Below, in pieces: positions 2,941 to 39,440 of a stretch of 39,490 nucleotides of DNA. The stretch is from a virus. Under the pieces are notes generated by a model, which was not told the origin of the DNA, did not search any database, and saw nothing but the letters and a program-made list of their open reading frames with translations. Numbering within the stretch: position 1 is the first letter of the stretch; each line of letters opens with the position of its first letter. The stretch lies in UHGV virus genome UHGV-0154499. One strand, 5' to 3'. The translations under genes were made by a program, and so were the position numbers.

Positions 2941-3510
2941 TTACTGCTGATCTTCGACGTATATCCCAGCAGAAATAATCGCCCCACCAATTCGACGCTT
3001 ACCATACCCTAGGGGGACGGGATATCCCTGCGCCGCTGTATTAGTTACCCCGCCGAAAGCATACGAAGCGCGGTTATCTGCACTTTGTTTACTGGCAAGA
3101 CCTGATGGTTGTGGTGAGAGCATTTGAATAACTCCACCAGCAGCCAAAGAAATGCCTGCTGTAGCCACGTAATACTGCTGTGTTACAACCCCAACAACGA
3201 CCAAAGCAGCCCCAAGAATAGTTTGTAATAACCCTGCTTTTTTACTCCCAATAATTACAGGAACTATCCGTATAACCTCTCCTGTAACAGGATAACCAAG
3301 GTCACCCTCACCAATGTTTTTTTTCCCTTTAAATATGGCGTAAGTAAGCCCACGTCGTTTACTGGAGATCATATATTTCCGAAAACCATCTATGGTAGCC
3401 GAAAGAGCAACACCAGCTTCCTGCACATTGCTAATCAGTCGATGATGGGTCTTACCATAAATTTTCCCCAGATCTCCACCGAGTTCGATACGAGTCATTA
3501 CTTCAGTCAT
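2941..3510 (-). CDS. I: Tail assembly protein I
   Basis: Ubiquitin-like N-terminus (RIELGGDL), hydrophobic glycine-rich C-terminal half (GGVIQMLSPQ) as in lambda gpI. Start moved to the internal ATG at 3510, which has an AGAGG RBS; the track start at 3528 is TTG. Confidence 0.8.
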   Translation of the reverse strand: MTEVMTRIELGGDLGKIYGKTHHRLISNVQEAGVALSATIDGFRKYMISSKRRGLTYAIFKGKKNIGEGDLGYPVTGEVIRIVPVIIGSKKAGLLQTILGAALVVVGVVTQQYYVATAGISLAAGGVIQMLSPQPSGLASKQSADNRASYAFGGVTNTAAQGYPVPLGYGKRRIGGAIISAGIYVEDQQ

Positions 3511-3569
3511 TTGAACCTCTAAAAGCAAAAAACCCCGCCGTAGCGAGGTTTTGAAGAATATTAATTTGG

Positions 3570-3980
3570 TCAGAACGCCGTTGGGTGAATGCCAAAGTCG
3601 CCATTTGTTCCATAACCAATTCGGTACATGAGCGTGGCACTTTCAGTTACCTTGCCTGACTGTTCACTCATACCACCACCACATACACCTTTGGGCCATG
3701 CGCTAAAGATATGGTCACCTAATTTAGGGTAAACCGTTACCTTTTCAGCTGTATCTAAGTCCGCAACTTCTTTCCCATCAACATAGACACGAGTCAAACA
3801 TGCGCTACCCATAAATCCAGAATCCCTCTTGATGATCACCTTCCCTGTCCCATCATTTTTAACCAACATCGTATTGTCGATAATTTGTTTGACGGGAACA
3901 TCTTTTGCCTGCTCATTTGTTACCGGCTTAGTGGCGCAACCAACCATCAAAACTGCAAGTAGAATTATTCCTCTCTTCAT
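3570..3980 (-). CDS. Putative lipoprotein of unknown function (accessory gene; possible superinfection-exclusion protein)
   Basis: Internal start MKRGIILLAVLMVGC gives a signal peptide with a lipobox (LMVGC); the 19 residues upstream in the track ORF lack an RBS. No recognisable domain. Confidence 0.6.
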   Translation of the reverse strand: MKRGIILLAVLMVGCATKPVTNEQAKDVPVKQIIDNTMLVKNDGTGKVIIKRDSGFMGSACLTRVYVDGKEVADLDTAEKVTVYPKLGDHIFSAWPKGVCGGGMSEQSGKVTESATLMYRIGYGTNGDFGIHPTAF

Positions 3981-31101: not shown

Positions 31102-31299
31102 TCACGCAGCCGAATGGCTACGCTTTTCATAAAGTGATTGGTCAACTTTCAAATCACCTTTCGTCAGCGCTTGGATCTCAAATGCTCGTCCCTTTGGAAT
31201 AATTTCATCCCAGCCCGACACGGACGCATGAGAGATATTCAACGCCTTAGCGGTTTTCCCTACGCCACCGAAGTAAGAAATAACGTCATTCTTTTTCAT
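31102..31299 (-). CDS. cro: Cro-like HTH repressor
   Basis: 65 aa; HTH (KTAKALNISHASVSGW); divergent from cI across the operator region. Confidence 0.8.
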   Translation of the reverse strand: MKKNDVISYFGGVGKTAKALNISHASVSGWDEIIPKGRAFEIQALTKGDLKVDQSLYEKRSHSAA

Positions 31300-31398
31300 T
31301 TTTCCCTCTGGAGTTAAGTAATGCAGTGCACTGATAGTAGGATATCTTACATTAAATGGTCAAGCACTCCTACATCAGATAATGGTAGGATTGCCTAC
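31300..31398. promoter_or_regulatory. OR-like operator/promoter region between cro and cI (PR/PRM)
   Basis: Operator copies TAGTAGGATATCTTACAT (about 31335-31352) and TGGTAGGATTGCCTACAT (about 31383-31400), plus a third inverted element CCTACATCAGATAATGGTAGG. Confidence 0.65.
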
Positions 31399-32055
31399 AT
31401 GAAAATGAATGATCGAATCCGAAGCAGACGAAAAGAGCTAAAGATGACGCAATCTGTCCTGGCAAAGCTTGTCGGGGTTAATCGCGTCACCATCACCGGT
31501 TGGGAATCCGGTGACTACAAACCGGGTGGTGAAAACCTCCAGGCGCTTGCGGCTGCACTAGAAAAGACGCCGCAGTGGTTACTGGAAGGAAAGGATGATG
31601 GAAGTCAGCAACCACCAACCATGGACCCGGAGCAAAGATTCGGAATTAGGTCAGTTCCCGTTCTCACATGGGTACAGGCCGGGGAATGGACGGCCAATAG
31701 CGGAACGATCACAGAGCGGGACATTCATGACTGGGTCTATACTTCGGCTGCCGTTTCTGAAAGCGCATTTGCACTCATTGTTCGCGGCGACTCGATGACC
31801 AACCCTACAGGTGCACCAAGTATCCCCGAGGGCTCTATTGTCGTTGTAGAGCCTGATTTTGGTGATGCCAGTCAAGCTAATGGAAAAATTGTTATTGCAC
31901 AGCTTCTGGGAAGTGATGAAGCCACTATTAAAAAGTTCGTCATTGATGGGCCGCTGAAATACCTAGTACCTCTCAACCCCAATTACAGGATTTTAGAAGT
32001 CAATGGCAACTGCCGATTGGTAGGGTTAGTAAGACAAGTAATAATGGATTTATAA
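31399..32055 (+). CDS. cI: CI-like repressor (HTH plus LexA/S24 peptidase-like C-terminal domain)
   Basis: N-terminal HTH (LKMTQSVLAKLVGVNRVTITGWESG) and C-terminal S24 domain with the Ser region (IVRGDSMTNP) and the Lys-containing region (VIAQLLGSDEATIKKF); start set at MKMND. Confidence 0.88.
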   Translation: MKMNDRIRSRRKELKMTQSVLAKLVGVNRVTITGWESGDYKPGGENLQALAAALEKTPQWLLEGKDDGSQQPPTMDPEQRFGIRSVPVLTWVQAGEWTANSGTITERDIHDWVYTSAAVSESAFALIVRGDSMTNPTGAPSIPEGSIVVVEPDFGDASQANGKIVIAQLLGSDEATIKKFVIDGPLKYLVPLNPNYRILEVNGNCRLVGLVRQVIMDL

Positions 32056-32056
32056 G

Positions 32057-32082
32057 AAAACCGGGAATACCCGGTTTTTTTT
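32057..32082 (+). terminator. Intrinsic terminator directly after cI
   Basis: AAAACCGGG-aatac-CCGGTTTTTTTT starting 2 nt after the cI stop. Confidence 0.8.
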
Positions 32083-32091
32083 CGCCCCTCA

Positions 32092-32146
32092 ATGTAAGTT
32101 ATCCAACATTTCCCCTTGACCTCAAATAGTAAGTTATCCTACATTA
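32092..32146 (+). promoter_or_regulatory. OL-like operators with candidate PL promoter
   Basis: Two copies of the same 18-bp operator family as OR (ATGTAAGTTATCCAACAT and TAGTAAGTTATCCTACAT) flanking TTGACC, with a weak -10 (TACATT) inside the second operator. Confidence 0.6.
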
Positions 32147-32249
32147 TTCACATCAACAGCGAACAGGCAGGACGCCCATGAAGTAGCCGCCCGGGGCATA
32201 TGAAGGCCAGGATGATTCGCTAACACATAAATTCTCAAGGGGCTTCAGG

Positions 32250-32492
32250 ATGAAAGAGAACGAACCACATATTTATGCCGGTAGCATGAGCAACGAAGAG
32301 CTTTATCAGTGGCTGTGTAAGAAGGTTGAAGCAATGGCGCATCTTCGTCAGTTACATATGGATAAAGCCTCCTGTGTGCGAAGGCTTGAAGAAGTGGATT
32401 CAATGATCACTGAAGCTACCCTTGAATCTCAATTAGAAATTTCTCGGACAACTCAGGGTCCCATTCAGCGTCCAAATAATCAGGGAAGTTAA
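32250..32492 (+). CDS. Hypothetical 80-aa protein, first ORF downstream of the candidate PL
   Basis: ATG with moderate RBS; helical-looking composition; overlaps the 3' end of the convergent minus-strand gene, so one of the two may be spurious. Confidence 0.3.
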   Translation: MKENEPHIYAGSMSNEELYQWLCKKVEAMAHLRQLHMDKASCVRRLEEVDSMITEATLESQLEISRTTQGPIQRPNNQGS

Positions 32493-32862
32493 CTGGGTAA
32501 TTTGAGTGAGTAATGCGCGAGAGATATTCACTTGCTGGCTCCGGAAGAGCAGAGAACTGGATTTCATCGTGCAGGGCAAGCAGCGCATCAGTAAGTGTTA
32601 AATCTCGAATTACTGACAGCGGCCATTTGTATTTGAGAAGCAACTTGTGGTGAAGAGCCTGTTTTCCGTTAAGTCCATTGAGTTGATTCCCGTACTTTTT
32701 ACGGTGCTCATAGAGAATGATGTCTAGAGCACAGATTAGCACGGCGCGGTTTGTGACACAGGAAACTTCAGAGCTATCAACATAGCCACTGATTTGGATA
32801 CCGCGAAGTTGAGCAATATTGCTTTTGATCTGCGTAAAGAGGTGAGCGATTCCATTAATCAT
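32416..32862 (-). CDS. Hypothetical 148-aa protein encoded convergently inside the early-left region
   Basis: Internal ATG (MINGIAHLFTQ...) preceded by AAGGAA at 6 nt; GC lower than backbone; the upstream in-frame part of the track ORF (GTG start, Cys/Trp/Arg-rich) looks non-coding. Confidence 0.4.
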   Translation of the reverse strand: MINGIAHLFTQIKSNIAQLRGIQISGYVDSSEVSCVTNRAVLICALDIILYEHRKKYGNQLNGLNGKQALHHKLLLKYKWPLSVIRDLTLTDALLALHDEIQFSALPEPASEYLSRITHSNYPVNFPDYLDAEWDPELSEKFLIEIQG

Positions 32863-33446
32863 TTTGATTCCTTCGGGGTTGTAGGGACTTTGAAGGATAC
32901 CACCACGCCTGATGTGGTTAAAAGCAGGCCAAAGCAATAACAAGTAACTCCCTGTTCTGGCGGCCCGGTGTTTTCCCGTGTATTTCCGGTAACCGCCAGC
33001 CTTTTTCAGGGAACAACGACGAGAGCATTGACGAGCAAGGCATAAGTGCTGGTTCGATTCCAGACAGTCCCATTCAGTTGGGAGGGTTGGGCAGGGAAAA
33101 GGTTCGTTCGATTCGGACACCGGCAGTGTTCTCTTCGTTGTGGTGAATTGCAGTCCATCGAGACAACCAGAAGATAAGCATCTGGCGCCACAACCTTATT
33201 GCTGTGTGTAGTCTTGGCGGTACCAGGGTCTTCAACCTTATACAAGGGGGACGAAGATAATGTTCTACCTCGTTACCGCCCTTTTTACGCAACAGAAAAG
33301 GGCATCACCGGGCGACGGGCTCATAACCCAATCCACCCGGGCAAAAAGAAAGCGGTCTCTGCAAGCCGCCGACCAATGCAGGTGCCCTTCTCTGTTGTGT
33401 ATGGAGAAAGTTCGGCGGTTGCAGCCGCCTTAACGAGGGTAAAACC

Positions 33447-33818
33447 ATGAGTAATGACCGCATGACCGTAGTGCCAGATTTTCTTGGCGAACTGGATGCC
33501 GGCGTGTTCATGAACAAAATCGCGGCAGCACTTAATACCACCGCGCTTGGCGTTCTAAACAACGGCAACAAAGGAAAAGTAGTCCTCACCTTTGATTTTG
33601 AGCGCATGGGTAATTCCGTTGAAGAGAAGCGCGTCAAGATCAAACACAAGCTGAACTACAGCACCCCGACACCGCGTGGTAAAGCCTCCGAGGAGGACAC
33701 AACCGAAACCCCGATGTGGGTCAACAAAGGCGGGAAGCTCACCATCCTGCAGGAAGATCAGGGGCAACTGTTCGGGATCACTGGCGCGGTGGATGGAAAG
33801 CTTAAAGCGGCTCAGTGA
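33447..33818 (+). CDS. Hypothetical early protein (possibly YfdP-like, as in E. coli prophage CPS-53)
   Basis: 123 aa; first clear gene of the plus-strand early-left operon; family assignment is from memory. Confidence 0.6.
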   Translation: MSNDRMTVVPDFLGELDAGVFMNKIAAALNTTALGVLNNGNKGKVVLTFDFERMGNSVEEKRVKIKHKLNYSTPTPRGKASEEDTTETPMWVNKGGKLTILQEDQGQLFGITGAVDGKLKAAQ

Positions 33819-38126: not shown

Positions 38127-39440
38127 ATGGATAAAGTCACATATCCAACAGGCGTCGAAAACCACGGTGGCACATTACGCATCTGGTTTAATTTTAAAGG
38201 TAAGCGTGTCAGGGAAAGTCTCGGTGTCCCTGACACCGCTAAGAACAGGAAGATAGCCGGGGAACTGCGGACATCAGTATGTTTTGCCATCCGCACAGGA
38301 ACCTTTGATTATGCAACTCAGTTTCCTGACTCCCCTAACCTCAAGGCTTTTGGTGTAAGTAAAAAAGACATTACAGTGAAAGAACTTGAAGAAAAATGGC
38401 TGGATCTGAAACGGATGGAAATCTGCGCGAACGCATTCAATCGCTATGAGTCTGTCGCAAGGAATATGGTGCCGAGGATCGGAGGTAATCGCCTGGTGTC
38501 AGCAGTAACCAAAGAGGAATTGCTGTATCTCAGGAAAGATTTGCTAACTGGTTACCAGAATCCGACGAAAAACAAAGCTCCGGCAAAAGGGCGAAGCGTT
38601 GTTACTGTGAACTATTACATGACGACAATGGCCGGAATGTTTCAGTTTGCTGCAGATCACGGTTACTTAGAGGTGAACCCATTCGAGGGAATTAAACCTC
38701 TGAAAAAAGCCAGGGCAGAACCAGATCCGCTGTCTCGTGATGAATTTATTCGCCTGATAGATGCATGCCGGCATCAGCAGACGAAAAACCTGTGGTCATT
38801 AGCAGTGTACACAGGAATGCGTCACGGGGAACTGGTCTCCCTGGCCTGGGAAGATATCGACCTGAAGGCGGGAACAATTACCGTCAGGCGTAATTATACG
38901 AAACTTGGTGAGTTCACTCTACCGAAAACCGAGGCAAGCACAGATCGAGTGGTGCATCTTATCCAGCCCGCAATCAGCATCCTGAAAAATCAGGCTGAGA
39001 TCACAAGGCTGGGCAGGCAACATCACATTGAAGTTCAGTTACGTGAGTACGGCCGTTCGGTGAACCATGAGTGTACATTCGTCTTTAACCCGCATGTGGT
39101 CAGACGCAGTAAGCAGGTCGGATTTATCTACCGGGTCGATTCAGTAGGCGACTCATGGGAAGCTGCACTTAAGCGCGCGGGGATCAGACACAGAAAGGCG
39201 TACCAGTCACGACATACCTATGCGTGCTGGTCATTATCTGCTGGTGCAAATCCGAGTTTTATTGCCAGTCAGATGGGACATGCGAGCGCGCAGATGGTGT
39301 TCAATGTTTACGGTGCATGGATGGCTGACAGCAGCGCAGAGCAAATAGCAATGCTCAATCAGAAGCTGGCAGATTTTGCCCCATTGATGCCCCATAGCCA
39401 CGAGAGCAGTACGGGAGGATTATTAAAATCAGTAAGTTAA
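38127..39440 (+). CDS. int: Tyrosine site-specific integrase with N-terminal arm-binding domain
   Basis: N-terminal GTLRIWFNFKGKRVRESLG arm-binding domain; C-terminal catalytic region with the R...H..R...Y signature (GMRHGEL, HTYACW, VFNVYGAW). Confidence 0.9.
   Translation: MDKVTYPTGVENHGGTLRIWFNFKGKRVRESLGVPDTAKNRKIAGELRTSVCFAIRTGTFDYATQFPDSPNLKAFGVSKKDITVKELEEKWLDLKRMEICANAFNRYESVARNMVPRIGGNRLVSAVTKEELLYLRKDLLTGYQNPTKNKAPAKGRSVVTVNYYMTTMAGMFQFAADHGYLEVNPFEGIKPLKKARAEPDPLSRDEFIRLIDACRHQQTKNLWSLAVYTGMRHGELVSLAWEDIDLKAGTITVRRNYTKLGEFTLPKTEASTDRVVHLIQPAISILKNQAEITRLGRQHHIEVQLREYGRSVNHECTFVFNPHVVRRSKQVGFIYRVDSVGDSWEAALKRAGIRHRKAYQSRHTYACWSLSAGANPSFIASQMGHASAQMVFNVYGAWMADSSAEQIAMLNQKLADFAPLMPHSHESSTGGLLKSVS

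Follow-up and report, generated by a model that had tools for sequence, protein, structure and literature searches.

What do the near-palindromic repeats around the repressor gene of this phage do, and do they set its immunity? The genome UHGV-0154499 was analysed over its whole stretch of 39,490 nucleotides (39.5 kb, hereafter the window), and an earlier note on it had taken four copies of such a motif for a shared family of operators at OR and OL that defines the immunity specificity. Having combined motif and promoter scans, domain searches and a comparison with related loci, we consider it very probable, judging from sequence, that these motifs serve as operators in a lambdoid CI/Cro switch of the P22/phage-21 (immC) type. 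Every defining feature of this subtype of lambdoid switch that lent itself to testing was found. By its half-sites and recognition helices, however, the window falls outside the P22/21 specificity group, and represents a new, as yet uncharacterised class which is common and of a well-known kind.

Operator sites in OR and OL

The motif of the earlier note, a 19-mer consensus, was scanned over the whole window allowing up to three mismatches, and matched at 31334-31352, 31382-31400, 32091-32109 and 32126-32144, leaving the rest of the window empty. Shuffled sequence yielded a mean of 0.12 matches, and none of 100 shuffles reached four. In its symmetric 18-mer form, ATGTARG-N4-CYTACAT, the motif returns the identical four sites at the same threshold (31335-31352, 31383-31400, 32092-32109 and 32127-32144), with zero others in the 39.5 kb. 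As such, the four copies are real, and the whole-window scan, which had been set as a check, confines them to OR and OL rather than spreading them through the genome.

Two of them are located in the gap of 99 bp between cro and cI, which are divergently transcribed. OR1 (31335-31352) reads TAGTAGG-ATAT-CTTACAT and OR3 (31383-31400) reads TGGTAGG-ATTG-CCTACAT; the latter shares 2 nt with the cI start codon (ATG, 31399-31401), in keeping with the earlier observation that one copy lies on this codon. The other two, OL2 (32092-32109, ATGTAAG-TTAT-CCAACAT) and OL1 (32127-32144, TAGTAAG-TTAT-CCTACAT), follow the cI terminator (32054-32081) and flank a TTGACC at 32116-32121, again as had been noticed. 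No strand is assigned to any of these sites. The two copies in OR are not the full set, however, as a third site between them had been overlooked. This fifth copy, GGTCAAGCACTCCTACAT (OR2, 31358-31375; GGTCAAG-CACT-CCTACAT), has one perfect half-site but four mismatches overall and was found only at that threshold, where it scores no better than 12 background matches of the 18-mer in the window. At -41 from the cI ATG, GTCAAG-N4-CCTAC is nevertheless kept as a block in all relatives, and the spacers to either side of it vary. OR is therefore best described as a predicted tripartite rather than bipartite operator, in which OR2 is revealed by comparative conservation and not by its score. It should be noted that the left half of OR2 is under additional constraint from the -35 of PR.

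The centres of the three OR sites are spaced 23 and 25 bp apart, and those of the two OL sites 35 bp. When the OL alignment was inspected for an OL3, or for a site between OL2 and OL1, no half-site was present in either stretch; the surroundings of OL2 and OL1 that were searched for OL3 are unconserved except for the -35 and the terminator.

The cI and cro genes

On the forward strand, cI (31399-32055) encodes a protein of 218 aa, the N-terminal domain of which is assigned by Pfam to HTH_3 and the C-terminal one to Peptidase_S24. Its start is the ATG at 31399, not the open upstream ATG at 31321. Among PDB entries the N-terminal domain is nearest to P22 C2 (1adr, 2r1j and 3jxb; E ~4e-16, gapless alignment), of which 2r1j and 3jxb are co-crystals of this domain with operator DNA. 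Its PDB matches comprise P22 C2 and 434-type repressors only, with none to lambda cI. The C-terminal domain, on the other hand, is nearest in the PDB to lambda cI (E ~1e-21). In that alignment VQAGEW, GDSM and IKKF stand opposite VQAGMF, GNSM and FKKL of lambda, and the cleavage and catalytic residues of lambda find their counterparts in Ala94-Gly95, Ser132 and Lys178. On the opposite strand, cro (31102-31299) encodes 65 aa of the P22_Cro family (Pfam PF14549; E 5e-21 and 74.7 bits, the cut-off being 30.2), with SHASVSGW as the predicted recognition helix.

Promoters and terminator

A consensus scan placed PR on the reverse strand at 31334-31363 (-35 TTGACC at 31363-31358, an 18-nt spacer, -10 TACTAT at 31339-31334), from which transcription would start near 31327. 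PL was placed on the forward strand at 32116-32145 (-35 TTGACC at 32116-32121, an 18-nt spacer, -10 TACATT at 32140-32145), with a probable start near 32152. The two promoters have their architecture in common, TTGACC-N18-TAC(T/A)AT with an operator lying across spacer and -10: OR1 spans these elements in PR, and OL1 in PL. The -35 of PR lies within OR2 and coincides with its other, left half, and a gap of 6 nt separates OL2 from the -35 of PL downstream of it.

So where is PRM? The two-hexamer promoter scan gave no match for it. Read from the sequence, an extended -10, TGgTAGGAT, is found within OR3 on the forward strand (31383-31391), and we tentatively propose, at somewhat less than even chances, that this is PRM, with a start at about 31397-31399 and a cI mRNA that would be leaderless or nearly so. 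The element is favoured as a candidate because the TG at positions 1-2 of OR3 is near-invariant in the family; the equivalent positions of OL1 vary freely. GATAAT at 31378-31383 was ruled out as the -10 of PRM, being unconserved in relatives. In lambda, where the cI mRNA is leaderless, OR2 is centred at roughly -42 from the PRM start. With a candidate start near 31399, the centre of OR2 in the window would lie near -32, and OR3 would cover both the extended -10 and the cI ATG. This geometry, with OR2 away from about -42, lends no support to PRM being activated in the manner of lambda by CI bound at OR2.

The intrinsic terminator of cI (32054-32081, forward strand) consists of a 12-bp stem followed by UUU, with part of the U-run included in the 3' arm. 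As the stem takes in the T-run, the terminator scan passed it over; folding confirmed the hairpin (-15.5 kcal/mol, z -4.0). Most relatives retain a hairpin and a T-run at this position.

Conservation among relatives

A repressor search provided 73 IMG/VR loci, several genomes and coliphage mEp390 for comparison. The closest cI relatives are from Kluyvera cryocrescens (98%), followed by those from Rahnella, Atlantibacter, Kosakonia, Pseudescherichia and Serratia. In nearly all of the approximately 80 loci, OR1, OR2 and OR3 are located at -64, -41 and -16 from the cI ATG. The OL pair is present in 73 of 80 relatives, always with the 35-bp spacing, and the other seven are without it within the locus sequence examined. 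Off target, the 18-mer at three mismatches has only about seven matches in about 290 kb of these loci.

Aligning 57 unique OR and 60 unique OL sequences gave a footprint in which conservation is confined to the five dyads and to TTGAC and TACATT, the latter two as the elements of PL in the 60 OL sequences, against variable spacers between the operators, a variable cro 5' UTR and variable flanks. Both hexamers of PR fall inside conserved blocks of the OR alignment. OR1 is an invariant block across the 57 sequences and identical in 76 of 82 family loci, and two variants of OR3 likewise account for 76 of 82; this family-wide invariance is partly due to the promoter elements embedded in both sites, and much of the OR conservation stems from fairly close relatives. 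The distal half-sites, which lie outside any promoter hexamer, are conserved as well.

The position of OL relative to cI is far less constant than its internal spacing. From the cI stop to OL the distance ranges from 35 to 1260 bp, with the 35 bp between OL1 and OL2 retained throughout. Relatives within this operator family carry cargo genes between cI and OL: in L045 and in the loci L060-L073, the OL pair is found some 0.5-1.3 kb past the cI stop with additional ORFs in between, and upstream of OL, L060-L073 show no relationship to the window in sequence. By this comparison, the operators go with PL and not with the end of cI. The earlier note had singled out the location of OL directly behind cI, rather than behind rexAB as in lambda; the position is right, but it is the ordinary layout of phage 21 and does not distinguish this phage. 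The L060-L073 loci are furthermore about 80% identical to the window in the CI N-terminal domain and about 77% in Cro, but only about 25% in the CI C-terminal domain, which identifies the N-terminal domain of CI, OR and cro as the conserved module.

The reverse test started from the DNA. The exact tripartite OR pattern was found in 101 IMG/VR contigs, once per contig, and in all 101 a CI starting from the OR3 ATG carries GV(N/S)RVT(V/I)TGWES. Of the Cro ORFs that could be parsed from these contigs, 98 of 99 carry (I/L)SHASVSGW. The operator family is not private to the phage in the window, but is found in mEp390, the Yersinia phages YeP1-3, the E. coli phage Lys8385Vzw and at least 101 IMG/VR contigs. 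When compared by the CI N-terminal domain alone, Stx2c-converting phages, SKA5 and 720R4 are 66% identical. Our literature search returned no paper containing these operator strings or describing the operators of mEp390.

Specificity classes

Across groups of phages, the half-site changes along with the recognition helices of both proteins. In the family of the window, a CI with ..TGWE and a Cro with ..VSGW pair with the half-site ATGTARG; in a sister group formed by Klebsiella phi6.3, Pantoea AH07 and Pectobacterium ZF40, ..TKWE and ..VCRW pair with ATGTAAC; and in phage 21, ..SQWE and ..VSQW pair with ATTTAAG, the type that P22 belongs to as well. The residue preceding the tryptophan of helix 3 thus shifts in parallel in CI and Cro, being G and G in the window family, K and R in the sister group, and Q and Q in phage 21/P22. 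The 18-bp format of 7-4-7 is retained in all three classes. Moreover, an Arg at the position of P22 Asn32 accompanies the G at half-site position 3, where the residue-to-base contacts are presumably those of the P22 C2-operator structures.

Compared to P22, the CI helix reads NRVTITGWE instead of SNVAISQWE (S31N, N32R, A34T, S36T and Q37G in P22 numbering), the Cro helix reads SHASVSGW where P22 and phage 21 have SDAAVSQW, and half-site position 3 is G instead of the T of P22/21. The homoimmune group of P22/21 is characterised by ATTTAAG and SNVAISQWE, and the window has ATGTA(A/G)G and NRVTITGWE. With both half-site and recognition helix different, an immunity specificity different from that of P22/21 is to be expected. 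The claim that this operator family defines the immunity specificity is supported by all of the comparative evidence, in which the operators stay together with the DNA-binding portions of CI and of Cro and change in step with them. ATTTAAG, ATGTARG and ATGTAAC, together with the parallel changes in helix 3 of CI and Cro, would make up a natural recognition-code series.

A proposed mechanism and its alternatives

How would such a switch operate? A CI dimer, with a helix-turn-helix like that of P22 C2, is predicted to bind the 18-bp sites as two inverted copies of ATGTA[A/G]G separated by 4 uncontacted bp. Occupation of OR1, over the spacer and -10 of PR, and of OR2, over its -35, would switch off cro and the early-right operon, and occupation of OR3, over the cI start codon and the candidate PRM, would limit the expression of cI itself. 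On the other side, CI at OL1, across the spacer and -10 of PL, and at OL2, upstream of its -35, would keep the early-left operon off. Cro, which belongs to the P22_Cro family, is expected at the same sites as CI. Upon SOS induction, self-cleavage of CI stimulated by RecA would inactivate it and lead to induction of the prophage. At spacings of 23, 25 and 35 bp, or about 2.2-2.4 and 3.3 turns, neighbouring dimers would be roughly in phase on the helix, an arrangement that would permit them to bind cooperatively. The sites, their excess over chance, their overlap with consensus promoters, their conservation and their covariation with helix 3 of both CI and Cro are seen in the sequences; CI binding, its cooperativity, the order in which the sites fill and the position of PRM are what we infer from this arrangement.

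Several other explanations for the repeats have to be weighed. Chance, or AT-rich low complexity, might be suspected for a motif that is short and AT-rich, and of which the window contains the 12 background matches at four mismatches; the shuffles, none of which held four matches, the constant positions relative to the cI start across some 80 loci and the scarcity of off-target matches (about seven in about 290 kb) reduce this to a negligible chance. It is also very improbable that the palindromes are merely homologous or duplicated promoter sequence, PR and PL both being TTGACC-N18-TACxAT, and not protein sites at all. The likeness of the two promoters and the embedding of their -10 hexamers in operator half-sites do speak for this, and the -10 could indeed account for the lack of variation in the halves of OR1 and OL1 that lie nearest to the promoter. 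Yet OR3 and OL2 bear the same dyad outside PR and PL, the distal half-sites are conserved too, and in sister groups the dyad shifts along with helix 3 of CI and Cro, with TTGAC and the layout left unchanged.

Binding by another regulator, be it a CII-like protein, a host factor or a regulator linked to an antirepressor, is likewise unlikely to a high degree, if slightly less so. A CP76-like CII candidate is in fact encoded beside cro, on the basis of a weak Pfam match (E 7e-4) that is below the cut-off. The operators, however, are accompanied by a single type of CI helix 3 in each of the 101 contigs and by one Cro helix in all but one of the 99 ORFs, and they are retained in loci that differ in the genes nearby and in the C-terminal domain of CI. 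In addition, their format is that of phage 21, in which the OL sites are labelled as CI binding sites, and by their sequence they are unlike the LexA box, the consensus of which is CTGT-N8-ACAG. Operators for CI and Cro remain the reading that we prefer.

Comparison with known switches

The closest known counterparts are phage 21 and P22. As in these two phages, the CI N-terminal domain of the window aligns to P22 C2 without gaps and Cro belongs to the Pfam family P22_Cro; the CI N-terminal domain of phage 21 itself equals P22 C2 at all but two aligned positions. The operators of phage 21 are 18 bp long as well, with two 7-bp half-sites and a 4-bp centre of the type ATTTAAG-N4-CTTAAAT. In its annotation, the three OR centres are separated by 22.5 and 25.5 bp (23 and 25 bp in the window), OL1 and OL2 flank a TTGACC at a spacing of 35 bp with OL directly after the cI terminator, and OL2 is equal in position to OL2 of the window. 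It is the phage 21 record that labels the OL operators as CI binding sites. Besides the differences in half-site and helix, PR in the window is shifted by one operator, with the -35 in OR2 and the -10 in OR1 as in the lambda register, whereas OR2 of phage 21 lies in the spacer. A further difference is that no OL3 can be detected in the window.

With lambda, the window has in common the divergent cI and cro genes, a tripartite OR with centres approximately 23-25 bp apart, OR1 and OR2 over the -10 and -35 of PR with OR3 beside cI, and a second operator cluster that controls PL. The CI C-terminal domains are homologous with the cleavage and catalytic residues kept, and a leaderless cI mRNA is possible in the window too. 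In contrast, the operators of the window are 18 bp instead of 17 bp and unrelated in sequence, no rexAB is present between cI and OL, and OL consists of two sites 35 bp apart where lambda has three adjacent ones. Neither N nor nut can be recognised behind PL, and OR2 is off the position that lambda uses for the activation of PRM.

Much nearer are mEp390 (NC_019721), YeP1-3 and Lys8385Vzw, which share the operator family, the positions of its sites and the recognition helices of CI and Cro with the window, and whose CI N-terminal domains are 66-76% identical to that of the window by tblastn. Their genomes are sequenced, but the operators are neither annotated nor characterised. Differences are an E before the Trp in Cro of Lys8385Vzw, where the window has G, and a PL leader in mEp390 unlike that of the window. 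From these sequences, mEp390, the Yersinia phages YeP1-3, Lys8385Vzw and the window probably constitute one immunity group or closely related ones. The sister group (Klebsiella ST101-KPC2phi6.3, Pantoea AH07 and Pectobacterium ZF40) retains the gene order and an 18-bp dyad; its OR3 likewise overlaps the cI start codon and its OL sites flank TTGAC, but the dyad reads ATGTAAC-N4-GTTACAT. Within this group, AH07 and ZF40 share the PL leader RNA of the window.

The switch as such is textbook biology and will not surprise a specialist. What is gained is a fixed annotation of the switch, including operator positions, PR, PL and the true cI start, for prophages that are widespread in enterobacteria (Kluyvera, Rahnella, Kosakonia, Atlantibacter, Serratia, Yersinia and E. 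coli), and homoimmune phages become predictable from the operator family. Moreover, a third and a fourth specificity class are added to the P22 C2 family, of which repressor-operator complexes are solved, and the parallel helix-3 changes in CI and Cro are ready-made swaps for testing the evolution of helix-turn-helix specificity.

A structured leader RNA downstream of PL

Adjacent to OL, alignment and RNAalifold point to a conserved, structured leader RNA of the PL transcript (32159-32220, forward strand), which is not an operator. It is 62 nt long, starts about 7 nt from the probable PL start and occurs in at least 43 phage records covering at least two immunity groups, with SfII, SfIV, SfV, ST64B, SPN3UB, mEp460, phiNP, AH07, ZF40 and YeP1-3 among its carriers. 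The fold derived from 32 aligned sequences has an outer helix (GCGAACA/UGAUUCGC), a small hairpin and an inner hairpin of 5 bp. Strong compensatory change is seen in the inner hairpin, where one column pair is CG in 14 sequences and GC in 12, and another is UA in 13, AU in 10 and GC in 6. Its covariation score was reached by none of 500 shuffles, and slid controls collapse. As there is hardly any variation in the outer helix and small hairpin, covariation speaks neither for nor against them, and the copy of the window folded alone does no better than shuffles (z +0.44).

Rfam returned no match to the whole window, to the immunity region within it or to the PL leaders taken from eight related loci. 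A covariance model found no second, putR-like copy of the leader in the window, the best hit scoring 101 bits and the next 14 bits, and a literature search with leader strings found no report on operators of this family. Of the serotype-converting phages of Shigella, the carriers SfII, SfIV and SfV are reported to be without N, whereas SfI, Sf6 and SfX have it (PMC3851460). The latter three are not among the leader-RNA matches listed. Could the leader be a new cis-acting RNA that replaces N and nut for the early-left operon, as a put-like processive antiterminator or by protecting the transcript? We regard this as rather unlikely; if it were true, antitermination based on an RNA would be controlled from the immunity region.

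The alternative PL leader of the mEp390 type is common to epsilon15 and SPN1S-like phages, and carries the label 'RNaseIII' in epsilon15. That it would be the put of HK022 was ruled out, as HK022 was unmatched in the search. ARAGORN detected no tRNA in the window, although the stretch at 33014-33143 matches one that is annotated as tRNA-Arg in other phages.

A structured RNA in the PL leader

Downstream of the operator pair at PL, the early-left promoter, the leader carries a conserved structured RNA (window 32159-32220, + strand), present in a single copy in the window. The alignment and RNAalifold give it three paired elements: the outer helix, one small hairpin, and another hairpin of 5 bp that is supported by covariation and capped by a conserved 12-nt loop. 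The element occurs in 43 phage records spanning at least two immunity groups; none of these 43 records carries an RNA annotation for it, and no matching Rfam family was found. Among the phages that carry it are the Shigella phages SfII, SfIV and SfV, which have been reported to be without N (PMC3851460).

In some phages, a second conserved type of PL leader (..GGCACATGTGCCGCAGCGG..CCGGAATGTGCAAG..) replaces that of the window at the same position. These phages have either the same operators as the window (half-site ATGTARG) or those of the sister group (ATGTAAC), and they include mEp390 (leader at 3497-3680 of its locus) as well as the relatives' loci L045-L053 and L090. The alternative leader is also common to epsilon15 and SPN1S-like phages, and the epsilon15 record tags part of it as 'RNaseIII'. 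That it represents the put element of HK022 was considered and rejected, as HK022 was not matched.

Small RNAs of another kind are found in Lys8385Vzw, a phage with the same operators as the window. At 51-236 of its locus (- strand), upstream of a cII-like gene, lie a C4 antisense RNA, scoring 75 bits, and isrK, scoring 62 bits. Neither was found in the window in an Rfam search.

The PL operon downstream of the leader

Beyond the leader, a phrog_5286 gene in convergent orientation (32416-32865, - strand) breaks up the PL operon. It is followed by a non-coding gap of approximately 580 nt that contains hairpin and T-run features, and the next (+) gene begins at 33447. With this gene and gap in the path of PL transcription, the integrase gene (38127-39440) would be reached only by read-through of 32416-33446. 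Within the gap, a non-coding stretch at 33014-33143 is about 93% identical to sequence found in SPN1S/SPN9TCW, SPC32 and Edwardsiella phages, and some of the matching records label it tRNA-Arg. It contains a T-arm-like GGTTCGATTCC, and ARAGORN detected no tRNA in the whole window. The stretch could be what is left of a tRNA gene, or else an element that resembles a tRNA.

The start of cI and its surroundings in relatives

The cI frame is open upstream across OR to an ATG at 31321 (window 31321-31398), as it is in L060, an IMG/VR locus, and mechanical ORF calling therefore yields a 'repressor' of 244 aa. The operator footprint and the homology with P22 C2 put the real cI start at 31399. In the phage 21 record (OL657228; 1420-1564 of the locus), cI is annotated from an internal Met (MVGVSNVAISQ..) that lies within the HTH; the ORF that opens with the ATG at 1486 of the locus reads MNTQLMGERIR.. 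and matches P22 C2. The same record gives the label 'OR2' to two OR sites, numbering from the cro side.

The IMG/VR loci L060-L073 carry a mosaic joint within cI (1501-2151): their CI shares about 80% identity with that of the window in the N-terminal domain and only about 25% in the C-terminal domain, and it has a different C-terminus (..KVEYVAGILKASRHVEDEEVNHSKL). Operators and Cro are unchanged. In relatives, cargo ORFs are also found in the interval from cI to OL, the position held by rexAB in lambda. That of L060 (2591-2935) encodes a 114-aa protein, and that of L045 (2208-2672) a 154-aa protein whose N-terminus is hydrophobic and by eye resembles a signal peptide.
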